Part shown: in pieces, positions 24,088 to 51,933 of the stretch | Layout: each line of letters begins with the position of its first letter | Numbering within the stretch: position 1 is the stretch's first letter | IMG/VR virus record: IMGVR_UViG_3300012117_000001 | Span: 1 to 54,976 of that record | Source of the DNA: a virus | DNA length: 54,976 nucleotides | Strand: one strand, 5' to 3' | Program-made: the position numbers and the translations under genes | The notes under the pieces: generated by a model | What the model was told of the DNA's origin: nothing | Databases searched by the model: none | Seen by the model: the letters and a program-made list of their open reading frames with translations, nothing else

Positions 24088-24096
24088 CAACTAATG
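24088..24096 (-). promoter_or_regulatory. Candidate phage-RNAP promoter (late operon)
   Basis: The minus strand reads CATTAGTTG-TGAGTGG. It lies 48 nt upstream of the Zn-ribbon ORF and 22 nt downstream of the terminator at 24118-24145. Confidence 0.6.
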
Positions 24097-24117
24097 TAAA
24101 GGTGGGCACTGATTAAC

Positions 24118-24145
24118 AAAAAAAAACCAACCCGAAGGTTGGCTT
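24118..24145 (-). terminator. Rho-independent terminator at the early/late boundary
   Basis: The minus strand has CCAACC-ttcg-GGTTGG followed by nine T. It lies ~30 nt after the stop of 24173..24634. Confidence 0.8.
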
Positions 24146-24172
24146 TAACATTATATTCCTTACCAGAATAAA

Positions 24173-24634
24173 CTACTTCATGAGTTCTGCTGCTTTATTC
24201 CTTAATAGATCAAGCTCTCGAGCATGTCTACTGTATATCTCATATCGTTTAAGTTTCCAGAGACCAAAAACTTCTACAATATTGTCTGCACTGAGATAAC
24301 CTTGAGATATAGCATATCCCTCATCAATCCAACCCTTGAATTCCTTCTGGTAAAGACTACTAAGTAACACTCGGATGGTTTTATACTCTTTCTTCCTTTC
24401 CCACTCTCCGTCTTGAATGTAAGCACTATAATCATTCACCGTGATACTGTAAGCATGCACATAATGATTTTCTCTCTCATACTCGCTTTCAGCGAAAAGC
24501 GCGTACTTTCCAAATAAGCTATTCAACCATGACTGAGTATCATAATAGAGGAAAGAGTAGCAATCACCAACTAATGTAATGTCTTCAGTCAGGTCACTAC
24601 TCTCCCCATCTCTGAGAGGTTTCTTCATCATCAT
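24173..24634 (-). CDS. Hypothetical protein
   Basis: 153 aa with an ATGATGATG start. It is the last gene before the terminator. Confidence 0.6.
   Translation of the reverse strand: MMMKKPLRDGESSDLTEDITLVGDCYSFLYYDTQSWLNSLFGKYALFAESEYERENHYVHAYSITVNDYSAYIQDGEWERKKEYKTIRVLLSSLYQKEFKGWIDEGYAISQGYLSADNIVEVFGLWKLKRYEIYSRHARELDLLRNKAAELMK
24568..24576 (-). promoter_or_regulatory. Motif copy inside a CDS (possible internal promoter or chance)
   Basis: Exact CATTAGTTG-GTGATTG, but within the 5' end of 24173..24634, where it codes TLVG. Confidence 0.25.
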
Positions 24635-24708
24635 TCCGCTAAGTAAATTGTAAGCTTTCTAAATAAGCTTACAACGACTCGCAAAATAACTCTTTAGAAT
24701 AATCCGTC

Positions 24709-24987
24709 TTAAATGAGACTCGCGTAACTTACAGAAACCCTGTATGGCAAACGCAGAGGGGCTACGGAATCCTCCAAAGCTTTTACAGTGCGTTGGATTC
24801 TGTTCCGGATACGGTCTTTATCTGAGCCCTCTGGAAGCACAAATACAAAGGCATCAGCTTTTGTTTTATTACGTGCTTCTAAGATGCGAGATAAATAAGA
24901 GCCACCACCAGCAACAACGTTATCACTGAATAAATAGCAATACTTTTCACCATTTGCTTCTGCAATAACTTCCGTTTTACGAGTCAC
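24709..24987 (-). CDS. Hypothetical protein
   Basis: 92 aa with a GTG start abutting the dut stop. Confidence 0.5.
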   Translation of the reverse strand: MTRKTEVIAEANGEKYCYLFSDNVVAGGGSYLSRILEARNKTKADAFVFVLPEGSDKDRIRNRIQRTVKALEDSVAPLRLPYRVSVSYASLI

Positions 24988-25422
24988 TTATAATACCCCT
25001 GTGGAACCAAAGCCATTCACGCCACGCAGTGTCTCAGAAAGATCATCTACTTCGGTCAACTCGACCTGAGCAACAGGTACAATCATCGCCTGGGCTACCC
25101 GTTCACCTGCTTCAAAGTACAGGGCTGTCTGGTCACTATCAGTTACCAGCTTAACCATCACTTCACCACGATAATCCGAGTCGATTACGCCGAGACAATT
25201 TGCAAGGCGAACATTATGTTTGAATCCATGACCAGACCGGCCAACAACGAGCATCACATAACCCTCTGGGATTTCAAACGCAAGCCCAGTTCGTACAACG
25301 GCATCTTTACCATTCAGAACATGGCCGGAATCTAGTGCATGTAAATCAAAGGCTGCTGCGCCAAATGTCGCATATTTAGGAATGATTGCTTTTGGGTCTA
25401 ATTTTTTTAACTTAAGTTTCAT
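24988..25422 (-). CDS. dut: dUTP pyrophosphatase
   Basis: 144 aa with dUTPase motifs AAFDL, GRSGHGFKH, GVIDSDYRGEV and RGVNGFGSTG. Confidence 0.9.
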   Translation of the reverse strand: MKLKLKKLDPKAIIPKYATFGAAAFDLHALDSGHVLNGKDAVVRTGLAFEIPEGYVMLVVGRSGHGFKHNVRLANCLGVIDSDYRGEVMVKLVTDSDQTALYFEAGERVAQAMIVPVAQVELTEVDDLSETLRGVNGFGSTGVL

Positions 25423-26175
25423 TTATAATTTCAACGATTGGTATATATGTTTGATGTAATTTGAATCACCTTCAATATCACCCTCTGTAAGAAATACATC
25501 TTTGCAGGTAATATCTGGATGACTTGGTGGGTATAACCAATTACGGCTGTCTCCTTCCCATGTGAATCCTTCCCTGTACAAGCGAAGGATATAAATATGG
25601 GAGAAGACTTCTGTAAGTGGGTACACCTCTTCGATGAAGCCACCATCTGAGTAGACAGCATCAAATGTGGCAGAACAGGTTGACGCTATTTTGGCAACCT
25701 CAGCGGCCTCTCTGCGCCCGAAATAGTCTTTACCATGCAATGGCTTCATTACCATCTCAGAGATGTAAATCAGGGCTTCTCGTGGCGTCCGGTGGCCTAA
25801 TACAGGTAGCTTCAATGAGTCTTTCGTCTCACGGTCTGTTGCTACGATTTTGAAAAGCTCTGTAGCAATACCAAAGTATTCGGCTGTGGCCTTGTACAAT
25901 TGCGATTTAAATTCTCGTCGCTCCAATCGGCCACAGCTGCGTTTATAGCTACATGGGGATGCAAGCGTATTGGCACTACTAGAGTCCACGCAGTGAACGC
26001 CACAGAGCTGATTATAGGGTGTGTCACACAATGCTTTTGCAAGGGTGTCTTTCCCACAACCAGGTGGGCCATTTAATATAATCGCAACGTTGTTACAGGA
26101 TTTTGGCATGGTGATGTGTTGCTTGATGGGTGGCAAATCACTGCCACTTACCTCTAAGATTTGTGAATCAATCAT
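25423..26175 (-). CDS. P-loop nucleotide kinase (dNMP kinase-like)
   Basis: P-loop NGPPGCGKDT. Start set to ATG 26175, which overlaps the ligase stop as ATGATTGA. Size and the GKDT loop resemble phage dNMP kinases. Confidence 0.5.
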   Translation of the reverse strand: MIDSQILEVSGSDLPPIKQHITMPKSCNNVAIILNGPPGCGKDTLAKALCDTPYNQLCGVHCVDSSSANTLASPCSYKRSCGRLERREFKSQLYKATAEYFGIATELFKIVATDRETKDSLKLPVLGHRTPREALIYISEMVMKPLHGKDYFGRREAAEVAKIASTCSATFDAVYSDGGFIEEVYPLTEVFSHIYILRLYREGFTWEGDSRNWLYPPSHPDITCKDVFLTEGDIEGDSNYIKHIYQSLKL

Positions 26176-26890
26176 AAGACTCTTCAGCTTTGTCAAAACG
26201 GCAACGTACAAATGATGGAAATCTTAATTTCCCATCTTCAGTGACTTCGCGGTATTTAACTTCAATGAATGTTTCCAATAATTCATGGCGATGCTCCCAG
26301 AAATAAATACGTTGCTCATCAGTAAAACCAGTACCCACACTACCCTTACCAGTTTTAAAACTTCCGAGCATACCTTTGTTCTTACCAGTACCTTCTTTGA
26401 AACCAGTAATCTTCAAATCCATGTATTTATATGGGACAATCTTCCACCAATTAATACGGCCTTTGCCTTCGACTCGAACAATTAGTCCTTCATCACCCAA
26501 AGCTAGGCGTTGTTCCATTAATTTATGGAGATTTTCATTGGATGGGTTGGTTGCTTTACCTAAATAAAGTCGAGGGTCAATACTCCCATCTCTAAGATCG
26601 TAAATCATATCTTGCGTAATTAATTTATATGACTGACTACGAACCAAAGAAACAGTAGTGTTCCAATCAACTGAATAAACTTCACAGTCCTGGAATTCAA
26701 GGTGGTTAAGGTTGTTTAGAGGTTTGCTATCCCTACTGACAACTGTATTGTCCCGTAGACGCAAAGCCCTAACACCATCAATTTTCCTATAAACATGACA
26801 CTTCCCTTTGATAGCCTTCGATATGTCTTCCCAATCATGCGCATGTGCTTTGGTGTATGTAGTCCCGTCAATGAGGGTTTTGATACTCAT
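26168..26890 (-). CDS. ATP-dependent DNA ligase (minimal)
   Basis: 240 aa.
- Motif I: KIDGVR
- Motif III: DCEVY
- Motif IV: EGLIVR
- Motif V: WWKIVPYK
- OB region: GMLGSF..GSVGTGFTDEQR
- Motif VI: LRFPSFVRCRFDK. Confidence 0.85.
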   Translation of the reverse strand: MSIKTLIDGTTYTKAHAHDWEDISKAIKGKCHVYRKIDGVRALRLRDNTVVSRDSKPLNNLNHLEFQDCEVYSVDWNTTVSLVRSQSYKLITQDMIYDLRDGSIDPRLYLGKATNPSNENLHKLMEQRLALGDEGLIVRVEGKGRINWWKIVPYKYMDLKITGFKEGTGKNKGMLGSFKTGKGSVGTGFTDEQRIYFWEHRHELLETFIEVKYREVTEDGKLRFPSFVRCRFDKAEESYD

Positions 26891-26913
26891 AAAATTTCCT
26901 TAACTTCTCAATC

Positions 26914-27426
26914 TTATTCCAAGTGTTCTTGCAGATACTTGCGAACAAGTTCCTTCCTGGAATTAGCATTATTTGGCTTTGGGACTTCTATTCCAGCCAT
27001 AATAAGTTTTGCGGTTTGTTGGGCGGCTGGGAGTTTTGCAAAAGCAATAACCCTTTTGGCAATATTGGCATCACGAGGGGTTCCACCGTATCGTTCTTGA
27101 TAGGTAACAAGCCCATGACATTTATGGCAGAGAAGTTCTAAGTCATCTTCATTAACGAGAAGCATACGTGTAGCAAATTCACCAAAGTTTTCTAAAGTAA
27201 GAGTTCCTACCGTTTCTTTGTGGTTGACCTCTATTTCGGACGCTTTATAGAATTTACTGCAATGCTCACATTCATAATGCCATATCATCTTCCCGCCGCT
27301 GTTTTTCATTCTTATGCGTCGAGTTTGCAGAAGACCAAGCTTGACAGGATGCTTATTCCAGACTCGTCTGAGGCCACTTCTAAGCCAGTTTAAATACTGC
27401 TTCTCATCTTTGAGATAACCGTACAT
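26914..27426 (-). CDS. HNH endonuclease
   Basis: 170 aa with CEHC..EVNHKE..CHKCH. It has a 1-nt stop/start overlap with the FEN gene. Confidence 0.7.
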   Translation of the reverse strand: MYGYLKDEKQYLNWLRSGLRRVWNKHPVKLGLLQTRRIRMKNSGGKMIWHYECEHCSKFYKASEIEVNHKETVGTLTLENFGEFATRMLLVNEDDLELLCHKCHGLVTYQERYGGTPRDANIAKRVIAFAKLPAAQQTAKLIMAGIEVPKPNNANSRKELVRKYLQEHLE

Positions 27427-28460
27427 TAAGCTGCTGCAAGTTCCTCTGTTTCAATGTTTGCATCAACCCAGTTGCCATCGATAAGTCTTACAAGCTTCTG
27501 ATCACCCAAATCAAAGTAGATTTTCAATAATCCATTGAAATGCCACATCAAAGCCTTATCAGAATCGATAATGGTATTGACCATATACAATTGCCGACCG
27601 GAGGTAATCAAAGCCTGTTCCCAGGAGGTTCCGAAAACACGTTTGTACTGGGTGATAACACGCTGTAAACCTTGGGAATATGAAGTGCAGTCGTTCAGAA
27701 TATCAAATGCTTCCATAGCCCCGATACCTTCACGCTTTTCATACTCTTGACCAGCTTTCTTACCAGATTGATAGATCTTCTTAACTTTGATTCCGCAACC
27801 AATAACACCGTCTGTACCGTCACCGGTAAGAAGCTGCCAGAGGAAGAACTTAGTCCCAACTCCTTTGACCTCTTTCTTCGGCGTTTTACCTGCGCCTTTG
27901 ATAATCACACGGATTTCACCAAAACCTTTCACAGTTTCGGTCTTTTCACCCTTAGTTGAGGTTTCCCAGCTGTAATTAATGGAAGGGATTTGTTTGAGGT
28001 CTTTATCCAGACTACAAACGTAAATTTGAGTACCTTCTGGCCATTTCTCAGGTTTAGAAAGTGTTCTAATTTTATTATGCTTGCCGGTTGTTACCGTATA
28101 ATTGTATCTGGCAAAACATGCAATCAAATCATCTGCTTCAAGACCACGCATTGACATTGCATCCCAACACGTTCTTAAATGTGCTTTTGCATTATTAAGA
28201 TTTGTTGGCCGCCAAACACCATTACGGTTAGCTTTGTAGTCAGGATTAATTACAAATCTGAAGTTATCGTCTCCAGAAATAAAGACGTACATTACATCGA
28301 GGTTTAATCGGCGTTTAAGATATTCTAATTTTGCGTCCATACCCATCTGAATATGAGTAAAAGAAATGTCATCTTCTTCTTTGCCATATTCTTCAGCAGC
28401 ACTATGTGAGAATGCAACCATATCCCCGTCAATTAAGCCAACCTTAAGAGGCTTTGACAT
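27426..28460 (-). CDS. 5'-3' exonuclease / flap endonuclease
   Basis: 344 aa. The acidic clusters GLIDGDMVAF, LEADDLIA, DKDLKQIP and LLTGDGTDGVIG match the T5 D15 / T7 gp6 / Pol I 5'-nuclease family. Confidence 0.85.
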   Translation of the reverse strand: MSKPLKVGLIDGDMVAFSHSAAEEYGKEEDDISFTHIQMGMDAKLEYLKRRLNLDVMYVFISGDDNFRFVINPDYKANRNGVWRPTNLNNAKAHLRTCWDAMSMRGLEADDLIACFARYNYTVTTGKHNKIRTLSKPEKWPEGTQIYVCSLDKDLKQIPSINYSWETSTKGEKTETVKGFGEIRVIIKGAGKTPKKEVKGVGTKFFLWQLLTGDGTDGVIGCGIKVKKIYQSGKKAGQEYEKREGIGAMEAFDILNDCTSYSQGLQRVITQYKRVFGTSWEQALITSGRQLYMVNTIIDSDKALMWHFNGLLKIYFDLGDQKLVRLIDGNWVDANIETEELAAA

Positions 28461-28486
28461 TTATTTTATCCATATTGTTTGTTATG

Positions 28487-28508
28487 CTCCTATTAAATTT
28501 AATAGGAG
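28487..28508. promoter_or_regulatory. Perfect 22-bp palindrome overlapping the SD of the plus-strand orphan gene
   Basis: CTCCTATTAAA/TTTAATAGGAG lies in the 53-bp divergent gap. The right arm contains the AGGAG SD for ATG 28514. Confidence 0.6.
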
Positions 28509-28513
28509 TTTTT

Positions 28514-29062
28514 ATGACTACGTTTTATACACTTGACAGATCTAATCGCTGCACAGAGCAACAAGTATTTAACCCACAGCAATTATCGATTAACTTTGGT
28601 ATAACCACCGACAACAGCGATGAACCAACTGTTATCTCTGTTTCTTCCCATGGAATGCAGTACCTGAACAAGAATATTTTTAGAGACCCTGACGGCCCGA
28701 GCACTGCCACTGAATTAATCTTCGAGTTAGTTAGAAGTCACCATTTTCCAAACAAACCGACTAGGCTCAGATGCATGTTTGTCACAGACTCCTTAGAAGA
28801 TGCACAGCATTTTAAAAATCAGTTTTGGGCTAATAGGCCATATAAGATTTTCAGCATAGAGTATGACGGTGAAGTCCACAGAGGTGATATGCGTCTTCTT
28901 AGTATTGATGGAACTATCATCGAAATTCAAAAGCGTGCTATGGCTTATTGGTGCGGAGAGACATATCCTCTACACCCTGGTTACGAACCCTATTGGGAAA
29001 CGCTCATCCCACTACCTGCACAACTTGGTCAAATCGTAGAGCAGTGGCCAAACCCTTCTTAA
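28514..29062 (+). CDS. Hypothetical protein on the opposite strand (moron-like)
   Basis: Start set to ATG 28514, with AGGAG 5 nt upstream. It is 182 aa, convergent with 29086..29946, and has no recognisable motif. Confidence 0.6.
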   Translation: MTTFYTLDRSNRCTEQQVFNPQQLSINFGITTDNSDEPTVISVSSHGMQYLNKNIFRDPDGPSTATELIFELVRSHHFPNKPTRLRCMFVTDSLEDAQHFKNQFWANRPYKIFSIEYDGEVHRGDMRLLSIDGTIIEIQKRAMAYWCGETYPLHPGYEPYWETLIPLPAQLGQIVEQWPNPS

Positions 29063-29085
29063 AGAAAAGTTTGACCACAACATCA

Positions 29086-29946
29086 TTAGAACGGAACCAT
29101 GGAGGTTGCGCTCGAATCGGTGCCAGTTGCTGTTACAGCTGCTTGCCGTGCCAGTTCAGCTTCCATAGCTGCATCTACATCAGCTTGGCTTACTTCAGCC
29201 TCAGCAGATTCTTGCGCATCGTTCTGCGCCGGTGCAGTGCCAGATTCACCCAGCAATGCTGCTAGTTTTGACTTGTAGAATTCTGGGCCAGACTTGATAC
29301 GTTCTTGAGGGCACCACTGGTTACCGAATGGAAGTTTCTTAAAGATCTCTACATCCGGGTTATCCATATCGAAGAAGACCGGAACATTCACCAATGGTGG
29401 TGCAGTTTTCTTATCTTTCCCCTTCATTGCAGCGAAAGCTGAGACTTTATTCACCATCTTCCCAGCATTTTTCCCAGACTTGCTCATCTGTTGAATGAGG
29501 TTGATAGTCAGTGGTTCTGACAATAGTTCTTTCAGTTCTTTTGCAGGGTGACCAACAATTCCTTGTTCAGGATTTGCCAAGACTTCAAATGCATCTACAG
29601 ACTGCATTAATTTAAAGATATGAGAACGTTCACCCATGAAGCCATCAGGATTATAAGTGAACTCGAAATCAAACCAACGTGGTTTATCTTTCAGTGCCGC
29701 TGGGACCATTTCATCATCTTCTTGCACCATCTTAATAGAGCCATCTGCATTTACTTCACACATGAATTCATCAAGCAGTTCAAACTTCATAATAAGTTTA
29801 CATGCTGGATTTGGGTATTGACCGCTACCAGGTTGTAAACCTAAATCAATGATTTGAACAATACGTGCAGAATATCCACCAGCATCTAACAATGGTGCAG
29901 CAGAAGCTACGTTATTTGATTGTTTTGTTGCAGCTACAAAAGCCAT
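29086..29946 (-). CDS. Possible ssDNA-binding/annealing protein (T7 gp2.5-like position)
   Basis: 286 aa between the FEN and DNA polymerase genes. The C-terminal third is acidic and ends SMVPF. The assignment is weak and positional. Confidence 0.3.
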   Translation of the reverse strand: MAFVAATKQSNNVASAAPLLDAGGYSARIVQIIDLGLQPGSGQYPNPACKLIMKFELLDEFMCEVNADGSIKMVQEDDEMVPAALKDKPRWFDFEFTYNPDGFMGERSHIFKLMQSVDAFEVLANPEQGIVGHPAKELKELLSEPLTINLIQQMSKSGKNAGKMVNKVSAFAAMKGKDKKTAPPLVNVPVFFDMDNPDVEIFKKLPFGNQWCPQERIKSGPEFYKSKLAALLGESGTAPAQNDAQESAEAEVSQADVDAAMEAELARQAAVTATGTDSSATSMVPF

Positions 29947-30036
29947 GATAAATCTCCTTAACTCTAATCGGCACTAATATATTTCCGATTGGGTACATTT
30001 TTATTAATAGAATTTTTATAACTTCAAAATGAAGTA

Positions 30037-31974
30037 TTAGTGAATTGCGGAATAGTTTTTACCGTATTGAACATCACAAGCTATTTCACGATTCATTTTT
30101 AGGGTTGCATTGGTACGAGCCATTGACTCTTCCATAATCCCATTCCAAATATCCTGAGTACCTTTTAAGATAATCAGTATTAATTCGTCATGGAATTGGC
30201 CGGAAAGTTTCGGGTCACGGTTATAACGTTCATTGCAAATAGCAATAACGTTGTTACACCAAATATCAAAGATATAACTACCGGAACCTTGACAGAGGGT
30301 TGAGAAACGGTCTTTCTCGTAACGAAGGGAGTACCAGAAGTTATTAATCGGGTTAAGCTGCCACATTTGACCATCAATTGTTTTAACGGTTGTATTTGCT
30401 GCAATCTCTTTTATTGACCAATTTAACTTCCAATATGCTTTATGGAGTTGCTCACCAATTGCTAGTGCTACACCAGCGGCACGAGCTACTGTTGGAGGCA
30501 TAGCACCATATTGACACGAATAGTTCGTGGCTTTCCCGTAGCTACGTTGAGTTGAGTACTTTTGAACACCAGCTTTATGGTCAGCAACTTGCAATGGGGT
30601 CAACATTCCACCCATTAGACAGATCTCTAAATGTGGGTCGAAGTCTGCTGACATCTGTTTCTTCACATACTCTGGGTCATACGGCCATTGGTAGTGGTGT
30701 TTAACACGGTCTTCTAATGAACATAAGTCACTGCCAAGTAGTTCGTAACCGTCTTCACAGGTAAGTAGGCCACGCAGTTCTTTCCCGTAAACAACTCGAA
30801 GAGAAGGAAGGTTAACCAACTCACGATGTTTGAGTCGCAGTGTGTTAGTCAGACCTTGGCAGCGTGCTGTCAGGTAACCATCAACATGGTTTGCAAGGAA
30901 CCCTTTGCAGATACTTGAACGATGCTTGAGTACTCCATAACCAATTAAATGCTCAATGCCTACGCCAGGATTCTTCTTAGCCAGTTTGTACAATGAAGGG
31001 CAGATGTCTGGGTTATCATCTTCATCTTTTACTGAAATCTGAGGGATTTTCTTCATTTCGTTCGTTTCTTTATTACGAACAAACTTAAAGGTTTCAGGTT
31101 CCCAACCCAGACTGAATAGCCAATCTTTAATCTGACCTGGAGAGTTCGGATTCCCAATTTCGTAACCCGTAATCATTGATACGGCTAAATTAGTATCATT
31201 GAAATCTAATTTATTCTGGTCACAAATTACTTTCCACTCCATACCTGCTTTGGAAAGACTCCCATTTTGCTTAAAACATTTCGCAGGTCTGTTCTTAATT
31301 TTCTTATTAGCAATCTTTGGCATAGCATGGCTTAGCTCGCTATGCTTCTCGGTAACTTTTTCGTCAATTTCTGCTTTTAATTTAATGCACCCTTCTACAT
31401 CCAACTTCCAGCGCGTATTCTGTTGTATACGGAGCTGATTTGCTTTGGACATTAGATATTCGATGAATCGCATTACTTCAGAATGACTTTTATAAATTGT
31501 CATTAATTGACGATATTGCTTTTGCCATAACTTTATTTGGATTCGGCAGTCTTGCATTACACGATGGTTATATTCCTCTTGAGTGAGCGATTCCCAATCA
31601 GCGATTGGCGGTTTTGGAACTCCAAACTCCTCACCGTACTCTTCAAGACCATGCTTAACTCTGCGTGGTTCTAAGTACCAAGAAAGAAACAAGGTATCAA
31701 TAACTCTGATTTTTGAAACATCATAGCCGAGTAGCTCCAATGCTTGCTTATCAAAAGGAATACCATTGTGCATTATTAAAACTGGGCTTGAATTAAGAAA
31801 TGACTGTATCTTGTCCCTTTCAGTTCCTTCAAATAGGACTTCATTCAATAACTCAGCATTGATTAAACCTAAATTGTGGAGGCGTGGATTTGGCTGCTTA
31901 CGCATTGCATCAAGCAGCCCTGTTGTTTCAATATCCGCTGCCCACAAATTTTCTAATAGTGGGTACTTATTCAT
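30037..31974 (-). CDS. Family A DNA polymerase with 3'-5' exonuclease
   Basis: 645 aa. Exonuclease motifs are DIETTGL and HNGIPFDKQAL. Polymerase motifs are A LLGSDLCSLEDRV, B RSYGKATNYSCQYG and C FHDELIL. Confidence 0.9.
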   Translation of the reverse strand: MNKYPLLENLWAADIETTGLLDAMRKQPNPRLHNLGLINAELLNEVLFEGTERDKIQSFLNSSPVLIMHNGIPFDKQALELLGYDVSKIRVIDTLFLSWYLEPRRVKHGLEEYGEEFGVPKPPIADWESLTQEEYNHRVMQDCRIQIKLWQKQYRQLMTIYKSHSEVMRFIEYLMSKANQLRIQQNTRWKLDVEGCIKLKAEIDEKVTEKHSELSHAMPKIANKKIKNRPAKCFKQNGSLSKAGMEWKVICDQNKLDFNDTNLAVSMITGYEIGNPNSPGQIKDWLFSLGWEPETFKFVRNKETNEMKKIPQISVKDEDDNPDICPSLYKLAKKNPGVGIEHLIGYGVLKHRSSICKGFLANHVDGYLTARCQGLTNTLRLKHRELVNLPSLRVVYGKELRGLLTCEDGYELLGSDLCSLEDRVKHHYQWPYDPEYVKKQMSADFDPHLEICLMGGMLTPLQVADHKAGVQKYSTQRSYGKATNYSCQYGAMPPTVARAAGVALAIGEQLHKAYWKLNWSIKEIAANTTVKTIDGQMWQLNPINNFWYSLRYEKDRFSTLCQGSGSYIFDIWCNNVIAICNERYNRDPKLSGQFHDELILIILKGTQDIWNGIMEESMARTNATLKMNREIACDVQYGKNYSAIH

Positions 31975-33696: not shown

Positions 33697-33757
33697 TACG
33701 GTTCCTTTATTATATTTATTAGATTCTCCTAATCGAAGAAATTACTAATTCCACTGA

Positions 33758-33766
33758 CAATTAATG
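33758..33766 (-). promoter_or_regulatory. Variant motif copy upstream of primase-helicase
   Basis: CATTAATTG-TCAGTGG has one mismatch in the core and keeps the downstream GTGG. It lies 62 nt upstream of the ATG at 33696. Confidence 0.4.
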
Positions 33767-33871
33767 TTGATTAAGAAAGAAGAATTAAGAATTTCCTGGA
33801 TGACAGGCAGCGCAAGTTCCCCAAGTAAGCTGTAACTTACGATTGGGTTAAAAATCTCTTTTGATTATATC

Positions 33872-33895
33872 TGAGGCTGCTATGTCACAGCCTCA
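33872..33895 (-). terminator. Stem-loop after the 83-aa gene
   Basis: TGAGGCTG-ctatgtca-CAGCCTCA lies 9 nt after the stop at 33904. No U tract. Confidence 0.35.
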
Positions 33896-33903
33896 ATACT
33901 TAG

Positions 33904-34828: not shown

Positions 34829-34835
34829 GTGTGAC

Positions 34836-35162: not shown

Positions 35163-35231
35163 TTCTTTATCTCTTATTTTTATAAAAAGGTGCCAACTTT
35201 GATTGAACAAAGCCAGCATATATATTAATAT

Positions 35232-35300
35232 TTAATTGCATAAGGCGTGACAAGACGGGGCGTCTATCCAGAATTTTGGTGTTGCGCCTTATGCAATTAA
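35232..35300. repeat. Perfect 16-bp inverted repeat with nested hairpin
   Basis: The arms are TTAATTGCATAAGGCG (35232-35247) and CGCCTTATGCAATTAA (35285-35300). They enclose a small GACG-ggg-CGTC hairpin. Confidence 0.8.
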
Positions 35301-37997: not shown

Positions 37998-38002
37998 ATT
38001 AG

Positions 38003-45298: not shown

Positions 45299-46207
45299 TT
45301 ATGCTTGCAGCAGTGCTTTAACGATCTCTACAGGAGTACGTTTTAACGACAAATCACTGGCGGTTACAATAGCTTTAGCTTCATCTTTAGTGATTTTACG
45401 CACGCTATGTAGTAGTGTATAAGCACCTTGACCACCGTTAAATTCACTATTGTATCCAATGAAATATGGTTGGTTGCTACGATCATCCCTGTGAAGCATC
45501 ATTGCATAACCTCTTTGGAAACCGTTGGTATCCACTGTTGCAACAAAGAAATCACCAGTTTTATAGCCTGCTAGTTCACATGGAGTAGGAGCGTATACTT
45601 CGAGGTCACTTAGGTTGACATAACCGAGAGTACCAGTGCTGATGACTTTAAAGCGTGGATTATGGGAATGGTCATCATGATCAAGCTTTACAATTTCACC
45701 ATCTTTGATATTTAAACCAGCATCATGTGAGCGTTTCACACGAAATACAGTTTCACTGTTCCAGCCTTTTGCTCCAAATGGTGTGCCAGATGCTTTATCA
45801 ATGTCGTCCTGGGTAGCTGGGCGTACATCAGCAAGCCCTGCAGCAAAAACTCGGCCTTGTGAATCTTCAAAATATGGAATGTGGGATGCATCATCCCGGC
45901 ATAAGGTTACAACTGTACCTGAGCGACTACCTGTCAGGCAGACAAACTTGTCGCCAACTTTGTAACCAAGACGAGTTGCAGGTGTGTTAGGCATTGTTAC
46001 CGGTTGTGGAACGAGCTTAATTTCCTCCAAATTAAGGTACAACTCTTTCCCAGTACGCACATTTCGATATTTACAGCAAAGTGAACCATCGTCGTGGATT
46101 AACTCGCAAATAACACCGTTTTGAAAATCAGTACCATTATTGCAGTCTGCATTGGTAATAATAACATGACAGCCGATAGTGAAACCACGGTCAGATAAAC
46201 GTGACAT
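45299..46207 (-). CDS. Repeat-domain protein, paralogue B (four modules)
   Basis: 302 aa with the same module core (ELIHDDGSLCCKY, VTLCRDDASHIPYF, VKLDHDDHSHNPRF, MMLHRDDRSNQPYF). It shares near-identical DNA blocks with paralogue A. Confidence 0.7.
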   Translation of the reverse strand: MSRLSDRGFTIGCHVIITNADCNNGTDFQNGVICELIHDDGSLCCKYRNVRTGKELYLNLEEIKLVPQPVTMPNTPATRLGYKVGDKFVCLTGSRSGTVVTLCRDDASHIPYFEDSQGRVFAAGLADVRPATQDDIDKASGTPFGAKGWNSETVFRVKRSHDAGLNIKDGEIVKLDHDDHSHNPRFKVISTGTLGYVNLSDLEVYAPTPCELAGYKTGDFFVATVDTNGFQRGYAMMLHRDDRSNQPYFIGYNSEFNGGQGAYTLLHSVRKITKDEAKAIVTASDLSLKRTPVEIVKALLQA

Positions 46208-46339
46208 TTATATACTTCTCCAATTAATAGTTTTAAATTAAATTCTTAATTTATTCGATTGATAAAATGAATACGAAAATGGGCACTTATTCATTTTTAG
46301 ATAAATGCCCATGACTTATTTATTTTGTTATTCCAAACC

Positions 46340-46348
46340 CAACTAATG
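46340..46348 (-). promoter_or_regulatory. Candidate phage-RNAP promoter
   Basis: CATTAGTTG-GGTTTGG lies 133 nt upstream of ATG 46207. Confidence 0.5.
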
Positions 46349-46369
46349 CTAACTAGTTGACATAACTTA

Positions 46370-46615
46370 TCAGCGACTCTTTGTATAATGCTTGAGGTTA
46401 TCAAAGATGGATTTTGGGAAGATCTGATATGCTATTCTGCGATTCAACAGTATGGCATTTAATAATTTGGTGCCAGCTTGAGTGTTCTCAATTTCAATAG
46501 TGAACACCCCTGTCCTATACTGCTTCCATTTCAATTTACAGCCTGATGCAGATTTGAAGGTATCAATTGCCTCCATTACTACATTCTTGTTGCAACCTTG
46601 AATCACATAAATCAT
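46370..46615 (-). CDS. Hypothetical protein
   Basis: Start set to ATG 46615, with GAGG 6 nt upstream; the listed start 46654 is GTG. 81 aa. Confidence 0.5.
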   Translation of the reverse strand: MIYVIQGCNKNVVMEAIDTFKSASGCKLKWKQYRTGVFTIEIENTQAGTKLLNAILLNRRIAYQIFPKSIFDNLKHYTKSR

Positions 46616-46691
46616 GCAGAACCTCTGCCGAACACCTTGTGTTGGTACAACCACTGTAGATAAAGCATAGCATCACTCCATTCTTTAGCAC

Positions 46692-46877
46692 TCATATCAA
46701 CTCCAATTGACGCTCAGTATAAATAACTTCAACAACTTCACGAGTGACTCTGTAACCTCCCAGGCCACAGAGACTTAAACAATCACTAATCTCAAAGTTT
46801 GCATCAAAACAATCATTGATTAACTTTGTTATGTGTTGTGCTACTGCCACACTTGTTTCTCTAAATAATAAACACAC
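46692..46877 (-). CDS. Hypothetical small protein
   Basis: 61 codons from GTG, with no clear SD. Weakly supported. Confidence 0.35.
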   Translation of the reverse strand: MCLLFRETSVAVAQHITKLINDCFDANFEISDCLSLCGLGGYRVTREVVEVIYTERQLELI

Positions 46878-46923
46878 TAATACCCACTATCCCTTTAGTA
46901 GGCATTATGTGTTCACTCGCAAT

Positions 46924-46932
46924 CAATTAATG
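46924..46932 (-). promoter_or_regulatory. Variant motif copy
   Basis: CATTAATTG-ATTGCGAGTG is the same variant as at 33758. It overlaps the stop of 46927..47172 and lies 47 nt upstream of 46877. Confidence 0.3.
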
Positions 46933-47172
46933 GTAGAGACAAATCATCTCATCTATAAACGACTTAATTCCAGAATTGGTTACAGGGAATTCTAAACTTC
47001 TCACTGTAGAGCCATATTGGATTTTGTAAGTAGTCGGATAAAACATTATTGTCCCAACAGGTGATGGGATTGCAATAGTGTTGTTACTGTTTACTACATG
47101 CGGGATTGTTCCCAACAATGCAACAGCCTCAACTACTTGAGCGCGTTTAATTTCAGCTTTCTGCTTACTCAT
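46927..47172 (-). CDS. Hypothetical protein
   Basis: 81 aa with AGAGG 6 nt before the ATG. Confidence 0.6.
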   Translation of the reverse strand: MSKQKAEIKRAQVVEAVALLGTIPHVVNSNNTIAIPSPVGTIMFYPTTYKIQYGSTVRSLEFPVTNSGIKSFIDEMICLYH

Positions 47173-47181
47173 TGTTAGCCT

Positions 47182-47460
47182 CTAATCTAATTCTTCATCA
47201 CAATACGTACCCCACTCAAGATTTAACTCTTCAACAGTAGATACAAATTTGCGAATTTCTTTACTGATTTGTTTACGAGTCGGTTTGCATTGAAAATAAA
47301 TCTCTTGCCAATAATTATTTTTAGCAAGGCACAAGTAGAATCTCTTTAGTTCTAACCGTTCCCGAACGTTAATGATTTCTTTGATAGCGGACAGAGCTTC
47401 AGCACTGTGATATCCAGTATGCACAGTGAATACTTCATCATCTTGAAATTTATTCTGCAT
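47182..47460 (-). CDS. Small protein, tandem paralogue 2 (CKPTRKQI motif)
   Basis: Start set to ATG 47460, giving 92 aa. It shares the block FQCKPTRKQI with the upstream gene. Confidence 0.55.
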   Translation of the reverse strand: MQNKFQDDEVFTVHTGYHSAEALSAIKEIINVRERLELKRFYLCLAKNNYWQEIYFQCKPTRKQISKEIRKFVSTVEELNLEWGTYCDEELD

Positions 47461-47722
47461 ATCGCCCTTCCCAATATTCATCCCAGCATTCACGGATTTG
47501 TTTACGAGTGGGCTTGCACTGAAAACGGAAGCAACAATCATAGATTGGATTCATACATACAATAGAAACAGTGAATCTATTCTCTGATCTATCTCTTACC
47601 CAAAGACTCTTAGATTTATCATCCCAATTAGCAACAAAATTTGCTGCCTTTTCAATTACCGCTTGATTTGTGAAGTACACATTGATACTTACTTCTTCGT
47701 TATAATTCTTTATGCCCAGCAT
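47450..47722 (-). CDS. Small protein, tandem paralogue 1 (CKPTRKQI motif)
   Basis: 90 aa with GAGGGAG 7 nt before the ATG. Confidence 0.6.
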   Translation of the reverse strand: MLGIKNYNEEVSINVYFTNQAVIEKAANFVANWDDKSKSLWVRDRSENRFTVSIVCMNPIYDCCFRFQCKPTRKQIRECWDEYWEGRYAE

Positions 47723-47888
47723 TATTAATCTCCCTCAAGTACGCAATCGCAACTTCGCGAGGATTGATGGCTCTGATGAATTGCGAAAAGTAGCTGATAG
47801 TCATAGAAAGTCCCATTGAAGAAAATGTCTCAGCATCTGTACTAATTTCATTAGCAAATGCATCAACCCTGTCTCTGTTAATTTCCAT
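47700..47888 (-). CDS. First early-block protein
   Basis: ATG 47888 has GGAG 5 nt upstream, giving 62 aa. It is the first ORF after the coding desert. Confidence 0.6.
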   Translation of the reverse strand: MEINRDRVDAFANEISTDAETFSSMGLSMTISYFSQFIRAINPREVAIAYLREINNAGHKEL

Positions 47889-47941
47889 CACTTCTCCATA
47901 ATTAATGTGACAGTATAAGTGGCATTACTTCTCCTCACTTA

Positions 47942-47950
47942 CAACTAATG
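47942..47950 (-). promoter_or_regulatory. Candidate phage-RNAP promoter (early block)
   Basis: CATTAGTTG-TAAGTGAGG lies 54 nt upstream of ATG 47888. Confidence 0.55.
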
Positions 47951-48225
47951 CCGCAAACTTGATGCAATTTCACTACAATAGGACATGCCATACATAGATA
48001 AGTAGTCGTTCAAGATATCGACATTACTACTACCGATTGCACAATACATGTAGATGCAAGGTCATTATTTATTAATAAATGACCGACAATCTCAATTTGG
48101 TATCAAGGATGAGTTACCACATTCAACAAGAATGACATGCCAGATTCGTAACAAATTTAATATTCGTACCGGCACAAAAAGACTAACAGATGAGTGGTAA
48201 AATCAACCCATAACAAAGGTATTAA

Positions 48226-48799
48226 TTCCAATATCTGTGACAACGAATGAAAAGGTTGCTGCAAGTCTACATGCACTACTGACACAGAACTGCGCCAATA
48301 TTTACATGCCAAAATGCAGCAGATTCTCATGCAGAGACTGTGGCTAATTTACATGCACATTTGTAACAGTATTAACATGCGATACTGTTACAGATATACA
48401 TGCGATAATCGTTCACGTATTAACATGCACAATTAGTGAAATATCTGTATCAATTCTAAAATGGTAAACAAAACGATTTATGTAATAATATACCAATTCA
48501 ACGGTGTCTGATTTGCTATCACTTTCCTTCAATTTCGTACATTTTCCAAATCTCCCTCACCTACTGACTGTTCTTGTTATTGCAATAGCTACCAATATTG
48601 TGGAACAAGGGTATCTCACCTTACCACTAGTAGACGCACACTAACTCACAGAACTCCTTGTAAGAATATTGGGAGAATCAGAGACCTACTCCTGCAACAG
48701 TACGACATGCAATTCGCAACAATGCTCGTATCAATCTTGTTATAGATTGAGGACAATGGGTAGCAAACTGACATGCCTATACTGTTACAGATATTGGAA
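48226..48799. repeat. Repeat/operator-like array (ACATGC iterons, palindromes, 13-bp flanking inverted repeat)
   Basis: - ACATGC at 48269, 48304, 48351, 48375, 48398, 48423, 48705 and 48771, plus 47983 and 48135 outside this span.
- An 11-bp inverted repeat, TGTAACAGTAT (48362) / ATACTGTTACA (48382).
- Flanking arms TTCCAATATCTGT (48226) / ACAGATATTGGAA (48787).
- CCAATAT five times. Confidence 0.8.
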
Positions 48800-49120
48800 C
48801 TCAGAGGATTTATTAATTAATAATAAAATCCTCAGTTCCTGATTTGGTCACATGATTAACTCACTGATGCGAAGAGATTAACCACAAGTTAGTTACTATG
48901 TTCACAGCGCTATGAACAGGGAGTTCCAACTTATAGACTTTCTCTCACATCAATGTTCTCCAATCTTGTACAAACGCCTTCGTACATATGCCGGAATACT
49001 CGCGACGACACTCGGAACAAGTCTGGATTGCGTTAGCCAGGACTTATCTCAGTGGTTGGAAATCAGTAATCATGTGACCACTTTCTTTACTGCTTTGGTA
49101 AACATAGACGCTTCAAGATT

Positions 49121-49232
49121 ACACTATGGTTGGTGCCTATCTCGAAAGTCGGATGATTGCCCTTTCTCACTACCAACTAATGGCAATATTGAATTCATAC
49201 TTACAATAGAAACTACACTATGGTTGGTGCCT
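49121..49232. repeat. 18-bp direct repeat in the leaders of the tandem motif copies
   Basis: ACACTATGGTTGGTGCCT occurs at 49121-49138 and again at 49215-49232. Each copy lies just downstream (minus sense) of a CATTAGTTG copy. Confidence 0.85.
49174..49182 (-). promoter_or_regulatory. Candidate phage-RNAP promoter (tandem copy 2)
   Basis: CATTAGTTG-GTAGTGAG lies 70 nt from the copy at 49244 and fires into the ORF-free tract. Confidence 0.5.
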
Positions 49233-49243
49233 GTTTCCATACC

Positions 49244-49252
49244 CAACTAATG
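49244..49252 (-). promoter_or_regulatory. Candidate phage-RNAP promoter (tandem copy 1)
   Basis: CATTAGTTG-GGTATGG, located in the coding desert downstream of the RNAP gene. Confidence 0.5.
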
Positions 49253-49515
49253 CTGAGTGGTCAACAATGCTGAAGATGTCGAACACCACCGTCAACTAGT
49301 GTTAAAGCAGGTTGCAAGTCGTGATGCCATCTCGGGCTAACCCAAGTTGAGTGTTTGCTAGATGGTTAGGTGTGGATGCCCTATCAACAGCGTAGCACCA
49401 AGACTCCGGGCATATGTCGTGTTACTAAGGTTGCCTTATGGTTGAGGTCTACCTATGCAACTGTAATAGAAGCCACCTTGCTCAGATGACTTCGATAGAG
49501 TTACTCAGGTTTATG

Positions 49516-49559
49516 CACAGAAGAAATATGAATGTTCAGAGAAAATCATCTCTTCTGTG
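49516..49559. terminator. Hairpin just past the RNAP stop codon
   Basis: CACAGAAGA (49516-49524) pairs with TCTTCTGTG (49551-49559), with an inner ATGA/TCAT pair. A T-rich run follows only on the plus strand (ATTGTTTGTTCTTG). Confidence 0.4.
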
Positions 49560-49579
49560 ATTGTTTGTTCTTGATGGAA

Positions 49580-51463
49580 TTAAATACCACCAAGTTGTTT
49601 TGCTAAGTGCGTAAGGGGGTTGTTATCGATGAAGATCTCTTTATACGCTTCTGCAATCACATTGTGCAGTTTAGGTGCATCAGCAAGACAAACACGGAAA
49701 CAGTCATGGATGGATGTGTACCCACGTAAGCCAGCTTGTTTAGCCTTCTTGGCAACAGTACGCGCAATCAATGCATCAATACCCTGCACGAAGTGGACAA
49801 CAAAGGTACGTACAAATTCTTCTGCGGATGGCTCCCGAGCTTGTGTCGTCCATGGTGTCTTCTCTTTAACATTACCAAAGTTAACCAATGTGTCAGCACC
49901 AACCCGAATCGAGAATGCATCACAGATGATGATATCTTTCTCGAAGCAAGGCTTCACAACTTTCAAATTATCAATGTGAGTGTATGACAGGTACGCCTTA
50001 CTGGTATCCATCAACTTGTTGCTTACAGCTAATTGTAATGCCTCAATCAGTTTGTTAATGCGTTCACCTAAGGTGATTTTCACTGCGTTTAGGGTCAATT
50101 CAACGAATGCTGCCATATCCTGGGTGCCTAGCCCTGTGCTATCTAATGCACTGATAAAATCTTTGTTAGTTAATAAAGCAGCTTTACCTCCACCGTACTG
50201 AACAGACATGTAAGGACGTTTAGCAAAGTTACGAGTTAGGATTGATTCATCAACCTTCGCTCCCAGTGGGTTTACTTTGAGCAGTTTCTTGATGTTCTTA
50301 AGGCACAACATGTAAGGGTCATCAGATGTGCCAGCAGTTGTGCGAAAACCTGTTGCTTCTACTAGTTCATGTGAGCCGGCAAGTATTGCAAGTATCTGTG
50401 TACCTGAACATTTAGCATCCTCACCATACCCAAGACGGGAATCACATTTGCCTGTAGTTTCAAACTGCAACCAGTCATATGCCATACGAACATATGTCAG
50501 AGGCTTTGATGGAATTGATTTACCATCAATCTCACGCTGTAAGATCTTCTCAATTGCTTCATCAGGTTTGTTTCCTGCAAATGCCAGATATGCTGGACTC
50601 ATCCACTCATCACTACCCGCCACATCCCTTAGTTCAGTAATGAAGATATCGTAAGCATCACTACCTTTATCAACCCAATTTTCAACATTGTGAGAGTAGT
50701 AAGCTCGAGCCATATCCCCAGATTGAGGATTCGGGCCAAAGCAGGCTTCGTGGTACAAGCGACCTCTTGCATCACCTGATTGTTCAGAGAAAAGCTCTTC
50801 CTCATTCATGACTAACTCAGAGCCTTTATGCACATACATCTCAGCATCCAGACGTGGGTACAACTTGGCGTTTATATTCGTCATATTTGAACGCTTCCAT
50901 GACTCAATCACTCCATATACCGCTTGTCCCATGCGCGACTCAACATGGTAAGACGTATCAGATAGGAACTGAGCAGCTTCCTTGAACAGCTTTGATGCTG
51001 GAACTTTATTACCTTTGATGAATGGAACGCGGCGTGTCTCATCTGTGATGCGCTCGGATAATGGAAGAAGTGCATGAGAAGTCTGTGTCAAGTGTACCCA
51101 CTTACTGGTGAGGCTTAACTGGTCTTCATCATTGCTTACCCAACGCATAGATACAGCAATATCAACCATCTCTTCAGGAGTATTGGTGAGATACATAACC
51201 TTCTTATCTCTGTTACGGGTATGAACTAATTCAATAGCCTGTCCCATATACTCAACCATCTGAGCATACCCAACCTTGCATTCAACATCTGGTAAGTAAT
51301 TAAGTGCTGTGTAGATGGCAAATGCAGCAAAGCCTAATTGTTCATTGGCTTGGAAACCACACTCTTTATGATGCAAAGAAACACCAATAGCAGGTAATAC
51401 ACAATCCAGTGCAGCTTTACGAGCAAATGAAATAGCATCAGAATGGGTGAAAGCATTAGACAT
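49580..51463 (-). CDS. T7-family single-subunit RNA polymerase, compact form
   Basis: 627 aa, with GGAG 7 nt before the ATG.
- DARGRLY at aa 231 (T7: DWRGRVY at 421)
- Motif A: YGEDAKCSGTQILA, with D349
- Motif B: FAKRPYMSVQYGG, with K415 and Y423 spaced as T7 K631/Y639
- Motif C: TSIHDCF, with H586 and D587. Confidence 0.85.
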   Translation of the reverse strand: MSNAFTHSDAISFARKAALDCVLPAIGVSLHHKECGFQANEQLGFAAFAIYTALNYLPDVECKVGYAQMVEYMGQAIELVHTRNRDKKVMYLTNTPEEMVDIAVSMRWVSNDEDQLSLTSKWVHLTQTSHALLPLSERITDETRRVPFIKGNKVPASKLFKEAAQFLSDTSYHVESRMGQAVYGVIESWKRSNMTNINAKLYPRLDAEMYVHKGSELVMNEEELFSEQSGDARGRLYHEACFGPNPQSGDMARAYYSHNVENWVDKGSDAYDIFITELRDVAGSDEWMSPAYLAFAGNKPDEAIEKILQREIDGKSIPSKPLTYVRMAYDWLQFETTGKCDSRLGYGEDAKCSGTQILAILAGSHELVEATGFRTTAGTSDDPYMLCLKNIKKLLKVNPLGAKVDESILTRNFAKRPYMSVQYGGGKAALLTNKDFISALDSTGLGTQDMAAFVELTLNAVKITLGERINKLIEALQLAVSNKLMDTSKAYLSYTHIDNLKVVKPCFEKDIIICDAFSIRVGADTLVNFGNVKEKTPWTTQAREPSAEEFVRTFVVHFVQGIDALIARTVAKKAKQAGLRGYTSIHDCFRVCLADAPKLHNVIAEAYKEIFIDNNPLTHLAKQLGGI

Positions 51464-51639
51464 GATAAATCTCCAAGTTATTAGATGTTTTGAGTTAAAT
51501 AGCAGTAGGAAGAATTTAGGTAACGGGTCCTACTTTTCTTCTTACCTTCATTCCGACTCTCACACCTCCTAACCAAAAAATTTTTATAAATGTCACACGC
51601 ATAAGCTTAACCTCAATAAAGATATCCAGTATTCGTAAC

Positions 51640-51648
51640 CAACTAATG
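51640..51648 (-). promoter_or_regulatory. Candidate phage-RNAP promoter upstream of the RNAP gene
   Basis: CATTAGTTG-GTTACG lies 177 nt upstream of ATG 51463. Confidence 0.5.
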
Positions 51649-51924
51649 CTTAAAGGTATTCTTCAAACTGGACGTAATTATTACCTCTTAAGAATTAATA
51701 ATTAAGTTTGTGTAGTGTGTAATTTTATTCACTATAAATAATTGAAGAGATAATTCTATTTTGGCATTAGCAATGGTAGAAATTGACATATATTAAATTA
51801 ATTTTAATTTATAAAATAAAATTATGAAATATTGATCTGGCGCACTTGACACGCTAATTTTTTGAGATAAGATATTTATTATCTAGTGGCTGAAAAATAT
51901 TTAAGCAGTTAGTTAACGGGAACC

Positions 51925-51933
51925 CAACTAATG
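51925..51933 (-). promoter_or_regulatory. Candidate phage-RNAP promoter (distal, after the lysis cassette)
   Basis: CATTAGTTG-GGTTCCC lies 38 nt downstream (minus sense) of the endolysin stop. Confidence 0.45.

Follow-up and report, generated by a model that had tools for sequence, protein, structure and literature searches.

This locus raises the question of what purpose is served by a nine-nucleotide word repeated on one strand of a viral genome, and which molecule reads it. The DNA analysed, hereafter the window, is the whole stretch of 54,976 nucleotides (nt) at positions 1 to 54,976 of IMG/VR virus record IMGVR_UViG_3300012117_000001, and nearly all of its genes lie on the minus strand. 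On that gene-sense strand the word reads CATTAGTTG (plus strand, CAACTAATG). An earlier note, made from the letters alone, had proposed it as the promoter regulon of the phage's own RNA polymerase (RNAP). This proposal is supported by comparison: by promoter annotations in the record of phage phiEcoM-GJ1 (hereafter GJ1), by the co-occurrence of the word with one RNAP clade and by a position weight matrix (PWM) built from GJ1. From the sequences, we consider it probable that a compact T7-type single-subunit RNAP encoded by the prophage itself uses the sites as promoters, of the type predicted for phiEcoM-GJ1 and other Cleopatravirinae. Promoters with this word had been predicted for the phiEcoM-GJ1 family as early as 2008 and are annotated, as predictions, in the type phage of the family; the window is a new example of a known, predicted signal. 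Judged by the comparison, what is added here is that the word is invariant across RNAPs that are only 42% identical and across host orders, that it extends to an integrated, temperate branch, and that a pooled consensus carries a predicted start site.

A strand-specific word in the window

An exhaustive count over both strands of the whole window found ten exact copies in the gene-sense orientation and none in the opposite one.

Exact copies of CAACTAATG (plus-strand coordinates): 24088, 24568, 41552, 46340, 47942, 49174, 49244, 51640, 51925, 53543

In dinucleotide-preserving shuffles, the two strands together held 0.74 matches on average and at most 3. When all 8–10-mers were compared with an order-3 Markov expectation, as an unbiased scan, CATTAGTTG ranked first among the over-represented sense-strand 9-mers (10 versus 0.46 expected; Poisson P = 8 × 10−11). 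By the curated gene map, 8 of the 10 copies fall in non-coding DNA, which makes up 11.4% of the window (binomial P = 1 × 10−6). Five copies sit 37–176 nt 5′ of the first gene of a block; the next start codon follows after 47 nt (24088), 37 nt (41552), 132 nt (46340), 50 nt (47942) and 176 nt (51640). No exact copy lies at positions below 24088. The flanks of the copies are not homologous to one another, and the copies are therefore not those of one dispersed repeat. One-mismatch copies as a class show no strand bias (12 sense versus 12 antisense); the credible variants are those that are intergenic and followed by TGR, at 33758, 49293 and 39368 and perhaps at 46924.

Most of what the earlier note had reported about the copies was borne out by these direct observations of occurrence, orientation and intergenic bias. 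Its ten coordinates and the lack of reversed copies agree with the count, as does the excess over shuffled controls; so do its eight copies in roughly 10 percent intergenic DNA, its five copies 38–177 nt upstream of a block's first gene and the lack of copies within the 24-kb morphogenesis block. Hairpins were found upstream of the three copies for which it had named them (24123–24146, 41571–41597 and about 33870–33895), the last without a T-run. Its expectation of 0.2 copies per strand was somewhat low, although the conclusion of enrichment stands. That the word marks gene-block starts holds for the five copies but not for a tandem cluster after the RNAP gene or for the two intragenic copies, and its one-mismatch copies fail as a class, with 33758 and 39368 credible and 46924 perhaps so.

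Architecture of the sites

The window sites carry a second block, T-G-purine(-A), 5 nt 3′ of the core word. Among the ten copies in the window, T occurs at position 14 in 8/10, G at position 15 in 8/10 and a purine at position 16 in 9/10; in 51 sites pooled from eight genomes, the same three positions form a second conserved block (T14 in 42/51, G15 in 47/51 and R16 in 45/51). The GTG(G/A) that the earlier note had seen 3 nt after the 9-mer is thus part of a real element. The pooled consensus, T-K-n-R-R-CATTAGTTG-g-a-t-g-T-G-R-A, is asymmetric and about 17–22 nt long.

A PWM from the window's own eight sites was overfitted and uninformative, and an out-of-sample PWM from the nine GJ1 annotations only was used instead. 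With this matrix, a threshold of 12 bits yields 9 sense hits and 1 antisense hit in the window, where the null mean is 1.5, and a threshold of 16 bits yields 5 and 0, respectively. The top hits are the sites that the earlier note had listed, and the best matches are 46340 and 49244, at 22.5 bits each.

A subset of copies has an upstream extension, GAGCAGTTCTG-nnn-CATTAGTTG, seen in the window at 41560–41572, in GJ1 (our locus L008) at 13110–13135 and in three other related loci (L002, 2120–2145; L004, a prophage of Enterobacter ludwigii, 9370–9395; L005, 8912–8937). These copies may form a stronger or differently timed promoter class.

The same word in related genomes

The GJ1 record (NC_010106.1) carries nine regulatory features annotated as 'putative phage promoter', which read aaACATTAGTTGGATGTGAa with GTG(A/G) at the same spacing. 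The word CATTAGTTG is exact in 7 of these 9, and the remaining two differ by one base. Counts in the genomes of phages with related RNAPs are as follows.

phiEcoM-GJ1: CATTAGTTG 10 copies, 0.43 expected; antisense 0; top 9-mer
Aeromonas phage phiA050: CATTAGTTG 9 copies, 0.35 expected; antisense 0; top 9-mer
Faunus, first 50 kb: CATTAGTTG 6 copies, 0.36 expected; antisense 2
PP101: CATTAGTTG 5 copies, 0.24 expected, plus CGTTAGTTG variants; antisense 0

The last 4 kb of Faunus hold three further copies, which flank the RNAP gene, and the motif of Y2 is the one-base variant cTTTAGTTGGA. In three closer relatives, copies on the same strand follow the endolysin gene, lie just past the RNAP gene and precede a 227-amino-acid gene, and in aligned orthologous intergenic regions of the closer relatives the motif is the only conserved island. 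The copy 5′ of the RNAP gene is kept in GJ1, PP101, Faunus, phiA050, L002, L004 and L005. This conservation, observed directly, extends across genomes without detectable nucleotide similarity, and a nucleotide search of the window against phage records gave no match.

The word is missing from pAh6-C (Aeromonas), whose RNAP is about 34% identical and much longer, from a locus (L015) in a metagenome-assembled genome and from the host flanks of three prophages. Because phiA050, which has the word, and pAh6-C, which lacks it, both infect Aeromonas, the word follows the RNAP clade and not the host. Similar promoter predictions exist for PP101 (PMC6989608), with a related statement in PMC8472413; the PP101 paper and a 2021 review presume consensus promoters, and the papers on ST32 and 4HA13 do not mention promoters.

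The polymerase

The gene whose product is the candidate reader is the following.

49511–51463, minus strand: compact T7-type single-subunit RNA polymerase gene, 650 sense-codon positions with an in-frame TAA at 49580–49582

The 627-amino-acid open reading frame (ORF) matches PF00940 weakly but above threshold. An AlphaFold model (34 homologues) reached a predicted local distance difference test score (pLDDT) of 89 and a predicted template modelling score (pTM) of 0.84, and its best Foldseek matches are initiation and elongation complexes of T7 RNAP and mitochondrial RNAPs (probability 1.0, E about 5 × 10−18, 14–16% identity). Residues 162–624 align by hhalign with T7 residues 318–849 (98% probability). 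The catalytic domain is complete, with motifs A (D), B (K, Y) and C (HD) conserved, and the N-terminal domain, of about 160 residues, is about half that of T7. Beta-hairpins are predicted at residues 511–540, aligned with the T7 specificity loop, and the contact residues are not conserved. Nothing in this RNAP aligns with the AT-rich recognition loop of T7, which would fit a promoter with a short upstream part.

The closest phage relatives of the polymerase are Chaseviridae of the Cleopatravirinae (Faunus, Y2, PM1/PP101, Myduc and phiEcoM-GJ1; 42–44% identity). Closer relatives, at 70, 68, 64 and 55% identity, come from metagenomes and from chromosomal contigs of Enterobacter ludwigii and Lelliottia wanjuensis. 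A scan of IMG/VR with the RNAP returned Faunus only, and a scan of GTDB genomes with the RNAP alignment returned one scaffold of a metagenome-assembled genome (L015), which is without the motif.

The in-frame TAA (ochre), which stands in place of a relative's codon for Q, N, D or K, cuts the product to 627 amino acids. Past it, 22 codons still encode the conserved tail of the family, FHQEQTITEEMIFSEHSYFFCA, which aligns with the C terminus of T7 RNAP, and the same 627-amino-acid product is called in a second record (L014). The earlier description of a 627-amino-acid RNAP is therefore better replaced by a gene of 650 codons interrupted by an ochre codon. This codon is either a recent nonsense mutation, which would make the prophage defective, or a polymorphism; any inactivation would be recent, because the ten promoter words are intact.

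A predicted promoter regulon

If the enzyme works as T7 RNAP does, it would bind the invariant 9-mer as duplex DNA, chiefly through its specificity-loop hairpin, and would melt the less conserved 4–5 nt that follow. Synthesis would start at the near-invariant G six nt past the 9-mer, followed by a purine and then by A, which puts the predicted +1 at 24082 (G), 41546, 46334, 47936, 49168, 49238 and 51634. That the RNAP is the reader, where it starts and when each site acts are points that we infer. The candidate sites, all on the minus strand, are listed here from high to low coordinates.

51917–51938 (9-mer 51925–51933), minus strand: promoter-like site, 37 nt past the endolysin stop codon; downstream element TCCC
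51632–51653 (9-mer 51640–51648), minus strand: promoter-like site, 176 nt 5′ of the RNAP start codon
49285–49306, minus strand: variant site CACTAGTTG-acgg-TGGT, first member of the tandem cluster 3′ of the RNAP gene
49236–49257 (9-mer 49244–49252), minus strand: promoter-like site, second member of this cluster; 22.5 bits
49166–49187 (9-mer 49174–49182), minus strand: promoter-like site, third member of this cluster
47934–47955 (9-mer 47942–47950), minus strand: promoter-like site at the end of the gene-free gap, 50 nt 5′ of the first small early gene (47700–47891)
46916–46937, minus strand: variant site CATTAATTG-attg-CGAG at a gene boundary, 46 nt 5′ of a 61-amino-acid ORF; weak candidate
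46332–46353 (9-mer 46340–46348), minus strand: promoter-like site, 132 nt 5′ of a 302-amino-acid gene; 22.5 bits
41544–41565 (9-mer 41552–41560), minus strand: promoter-like site after a 12-bp hairpin, 37 nt 5′ of the conserved 227-amino-acid gene (phrog_13087)
39360–39381, minus strand: variant site CATTAGTGG, 84 nt 5′ of a T7 gp5.9-like gene (39065–39283); weak candidate
33750–33771, minus strand: variant site CATTAATTG-tcag-TGGA, intergenic, 61 nt 5′ of the primase-helicase gene and after a stable hairpin
24080–24101 (9-mer 24088–24096), minus strand: promoter-like site after a strong terminator hairpin, 47 nt 5′ of a 56-amino-acid ORF and the large terminase gene

The two copies 5′ of the RNAP gene (51640 and 51925) would imply positive feedback. 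The three tandem copies 3′ of it would fire into a gene-free, iteron-like region, and the early, middle, replication and late blocks would each begin with a single copy, often right after a hairpin terminator. The whole 24-kb late block would be driven from 24088 alone. Matches resembling sigma-70 promoters are depleted to about half of the shuffled level at positions 20000–54976 (29 versus 55 and 22 versus 39.5 expected), which fits a phage dependent on a polymerase of its own.

Alternative explanations

Several points weigh against reading the sites as a working regulon of this polymerase. The regulon may be non-functional in this prophage, where the ochre codon removes the tail that resembles the T7 C terminus. 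The specificity-loop residues differ between the temperate and lytic clades despite the identical 9-mer, and covariation of the loop with the Y2 motif variant gave no clear signal. The well-conserved positions number only 9 plus 3–4, far below the 23 of T7 promoters, and 2 of the 10 exact copies (24568 and 53543) are intragenic. The 2022 ICTV profile of Chaseviridae states that promoters 'have not yet been identified', and the literature searched held no transcript 5′ ends, run-off assays or binding experiments for any family member.

The word might instead be an operator or activator site of another DNA-binding protein conserved in the clade. These phages share many small early proteins without known function, residue-level covariation between the RNAP loop and the motif is lacking, and an oriented GCATGT array (see below) indicates that these genomes hold other arrays resembling protein sites. 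We nevertheless regard such a protein as an unlikely reader: an asymmetric motif, co-oriented with genes, 5′ of blocks and after terminators, is typical of promoters and unlike the sites of dimeric regulators, and its total length and the start-like G-purine element fit promoters of single-subunit RNAPs. The sole recognisable regulator in the window (HTH_46) has no homologue in the motif-bearing lytic phages. An operator of a 'Crp-like' regulator, as raised in the earlier note, is refuted: the protein in question belongs to the winged-helix HTH_46 type, Chaseviridae records hold no homologue of it, and the motif is asymmetric. The other alternative named there, a signal for RNA processing, is treated here together with RNA stability and antitermination. 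In long transcripts from few promoters, such signals would also be expected to show strict sense orientation and an intergenic position, and T7 has RNase III sites between its gene blocks. However, the sites share no fold (Z-scores −3.4 to +0.7, the low value being due to an upstream terminator), the 9-mer is paired differently at every site, and no Rfam match was found, leaving the processing signal unsupported. Several sites come right after terminator hairpins, where read-through RNA would be scarce, and in the lytic relatives the copy at the RNAP gene lies near the genome end, with little transcript upstream. An action in RNA is thus quite improbable.

Host RNAP must first transcribe the RNAP gene, and the GJ1 record annotates a sigma-70 promoter 5′ of that gene, which speaks for the idea that the word is an element read by host RNAP, with a phage-encoded or alternative sigma factor. 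We think this very unlikely, since no −35 and −10 hexamers (16–18 nt apart) coincide with the sense-strand sites, no sigma-like protein was found among the proteins scanned, and one and the same word occurs in phages that infect Escherichia, Erwinia, Pectobacterium, Enterobacter and Aeromonas, but not in pAh6-C. The two intragenic copies and the even one-mismatch background (12 versus 12) allow for some noise; even so, that all copies are functionless products of chance, composition bias or dispersed-repeat remnants has a negligible probability, given the Poisson value, the strand count of 10 versus 0, shuffles that never exceeded 3, non-homologous flanks and conservation across genomes without detectable nucleotide similarity. 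Readings of the word as an IHF site or a DnaA box were dropped, as the consensus, compared by eye, does not fit.

An integrated prophage

Rather than a free genome, the window is a prophage, integrated between att-like repeats. It occupies the same coordinates on a 65.6-kb ENA contig, k141_20933, and is bounded by a 123-bp terminal direct repeat that is att-like (window 1–123 and 54864–54976, continuing to 54986 of k141_20933; L013 6478–6600). Host genes lie beyond the second repeat: two chemoreceptors, an acetyltransferase and VipA/VipB of a type VI secretion system, in which tssC is 78% identical to that of E. coli, the sole megablast match. No tRNA lies at the att-like repeat, and tRNA and Rfam scans of the window returned nothing. 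A circular assembly, suggested by the identical ends (1–113 = 54864–54976), was rejected on the evidence of the 123-bp repeat, the host genes after its second copy and the contig coordinates.

All of the closer relatives are arranged alike: integrase, holin, endolysin, gap, RNAP, long gene-free gap and early genes. Chaseviridae are defined as strictly lytic, with linear genomes and terminal repeats of about 3 kb, and the window, with its integrase and att-like 123-bp repeats, does not fit this definition; its gene order and RNAP are otherwise Chaseviridae-like, and relatives sit in chromosomal contigs of Enterobacter and Lelliottia. The holin and endolysin genes (51971–53933) lie between the integrase and RNAP genes, at the opposite prophage end from the late block. 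Read-through from the late block across the att site would reach the lysis genes only after excision and circularisation; the copy at 53543 would be an alternative driver.

Individual sites and neighbouring features

Further features at or near the sites are as follows.

24123–24146, minus strand: intrinsic-terminator-like hairpin with a T-run (terminator scan), closing the middle-gene block just 5′ of the candidate late promoter
163–24040, minus strand: packaging, morphogenesis and tail gene block, 3′ of site 24088 and with no internal exact copy
41571–41597, minus strand: 12-bp hairpin (terminator scan), immediately 5′ of site 41552
24560–24581, minus strand: exact 9-mer, intragenic, in the 5′ part of ORF 24173–24634; poor downstream element (TTGC)
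53535–53556, minus strand: exact 9-mer, intragenic, within the integrase gene, 611 nt 5′ of the holin gene; downstream TGAC

Because site 24088 comes directly after the strong terminator and 47 nt 5′ of the 56-amino-acid ORF and the terminase gene, its sequence context makes it a candidate late promoter, and the block at 163–24040 is presumed to be a single late transcription unit. The hairpin near 33870–33895 has a stable 9-bp stem and no T-run. Site 51925 is probably weak, because its downstream element (TCCC) is poor; its position matches that of a GAGCAGTTCTG-nnn-CATTAGTTG copy 3′ of the endolysin gene in L002 and L004. The intragenic copy 24568 may act as an internal promoter or be present by chance or hitch-hiking, and 53543 may either serve the lysis genes or be fortuitous. 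The variant CATTAGTGG at 39368 is also annotated as promoter 4 of GJ1.

The position of site 41552 is kept in L002 and L004. Within the phrog_13087 gene of the lytic relatives there is an intragenic copy, (A/C)ATTAGTTGGAAG(A/G)GG, which is 'promoter 6' of GJ1 (L008 12795; Faunus, L006 10532; Y2, L007 14192; PP101, L009 13906; phiA050, L011 31993). The orthologue in the window (40831–41514) has no internal copy and instead has one just 5′ of the gene. A 219-nt direct repeat with 85% identity (44313–44531 and 45566–45784) joins the 352-amino-acid and 302-amino-acid genes. These two early genes match the same PHROG families and are paralogues, and site 46340 heads the second of them.

The gene-free gap and the RNAP leader

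The region 3′ of the RNAP gene combines the tandem sites with a second repeated word.

47892–49510, minus strand: gene-free gap 3′ of the RNAP gene, containing the tandem promoter-like sites and a ten-member GCATGT array in one orientation (47983–48776)

GCATGT occurs in this gap 10 times in the sense and never in the antisense orientation, against about 0.4 expected (47983–48776, minus strand). The array is found in every genome of this RNAP clade, in 8–15 copies (L002 4742–5932, L004 12540–13393 and GJ1, L008 2874–3844; also in PP101, phiA050 and Y2). Its extended consensus, A-n-TTT-n-GCATGT-n-AA-nn-TG, resembles the downstream half of the promoter, and its spacings cluster at about 24, 35, 47 and 68 nt. 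This iteron-like array is possibly a replication origin or a protein-binding array. At about 12000–13600 of L004, CGCAAACCT, ACCTGAGCT and CCTGAGCTA each occur 9–15 times on one strand, which suggests that the gap 3′ of the RNAP gene holds tandem repeats of a CGCAAACCTGAGCTACG-like unit; the window has no tandem array of the CGCAAACCTGAGCTACG type.

Just 5′ of the RNAP start, at about 51515–51575 (minus strand), lies a T-run followed by GTGAGAGyCGGAATGAAGGTAnnnAGAAAAGTAGGACCCGTT. This block is much better conserved than its surroundings across four temperate relatives (about 2590–2640 in L002 and 9900–9950 in L004); comparison among the relatives revealed no convincing common fold and no conserved small ORF in it. 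The block may serve to control how the RNAP is expressed during lysogeny.

Implications

The sites provide a transcription-unit map of the window and, for Chaseviridae, an explicit, testable consensus with a predicted start; the word was found in every genome examined of the Cleopatravirinae-type RNAP clade. The polymerase is about a quarter shorter than T7 RNAP, and the small polymerase–promoter pair could be a candidate orthogonal expression tool. Integrated prophages occur among the relatives of a 'strictly lytic' family, and one may ask how a self-amplifying RNAP loop would be kept silent in them.

A wider picture can be drawn tentatively, and we hold it to be possible but rather doubtful as a whole: a single specificity, CATTAGTTG-n5-GRA, would serve a clade of compact RNAPs (about 630–657 amino acids) without an AT-rich loop, which would span lytic Chaseviridae of several host orders and an unrecognised branch of temperate Enterobacterales prophages, in which the RNAP gene, placed behind its own promoters, would form a self-amplifying loop and the tandem promoters 3′ of it would fire into the oriented GCATGT array as an origin activated by transcription. 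Such a loop must be silenced in lysogeny, perhaps via the conserved leader block or the divergent winged-helix protein.

Comparison with known systems

The nearest known counterparts are the putative GJ1-type promoters, with which the window sites share the 9-mer CATTAGTTG, the spacing of the T-G-purine block, gene co-orientation and the RNAP clade, as well as the landmarks of a copy 5′ of the RNAP gene, several in the gap after it and others before early and middle blocks. They differ in the bases between the two blocks, which are gat in the lytic phages and more often g/t-g/t-n here. The window has a copy directly 5′ of the terminase block and none in the tail genes, whereas GJ1 and phiA050 have a copy after the tape-measure gene. 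Moreover, the window is an integrated prophage with an integrase, in contrast to a family described as lytic, and its RNAP is only 42–44% identical.

Compared with the T7 group (T7, T3, SP6 and K11; promoters of about 23 nt, −17 to +6, and RNAPs of the 883-amino-acid class), the sites are likewise asymmetric, co-oriented with genes and placed after terminators, with a G-purine at the likely start, and the polymerases share the fold and catalytic motifs, as the model and alignments show. A tandem cluster just 3′ of the RNAP gene is another common feature, matching the location of phi1.1A/B in T7, where phi1.1A lies 26 nt past gene 1. In detail, however, AATACGACTCACTATAGAGGGA (T7 phi1.1A) and CATTAGTTGgatgTGRA are unrelated; the window sites have only about 12–13 well-conserved positions and do not match the consensus of about 23 nt of the T7, T3 and SP6 kind; and the RNAP is about 230 residues shorter than that of T7, with an N-terminal domain of about 160 residues and no alignable AT-rich loop. 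Promoter specificities in the T7 group differ between much closer enzymes; the promoter word in this clade is invariant across RNAPs only 42% identical.

The yeast mitochondrial nonanucleotide promoter, ATATAAGTA, is read by the T7-like Rpo41, and the mitochondrial RNAP melts DNA only with the help of an accessory factor, Mtf1, a counterpart of which is not known for the phage enzyme. In sequence and start register the promoter differs from the window sites; both systems nevertheless have a core of about 9 nt and a T7-family RNAP, and the structures 6ymw and 8atw are among the fold matches of the polymerase described here.

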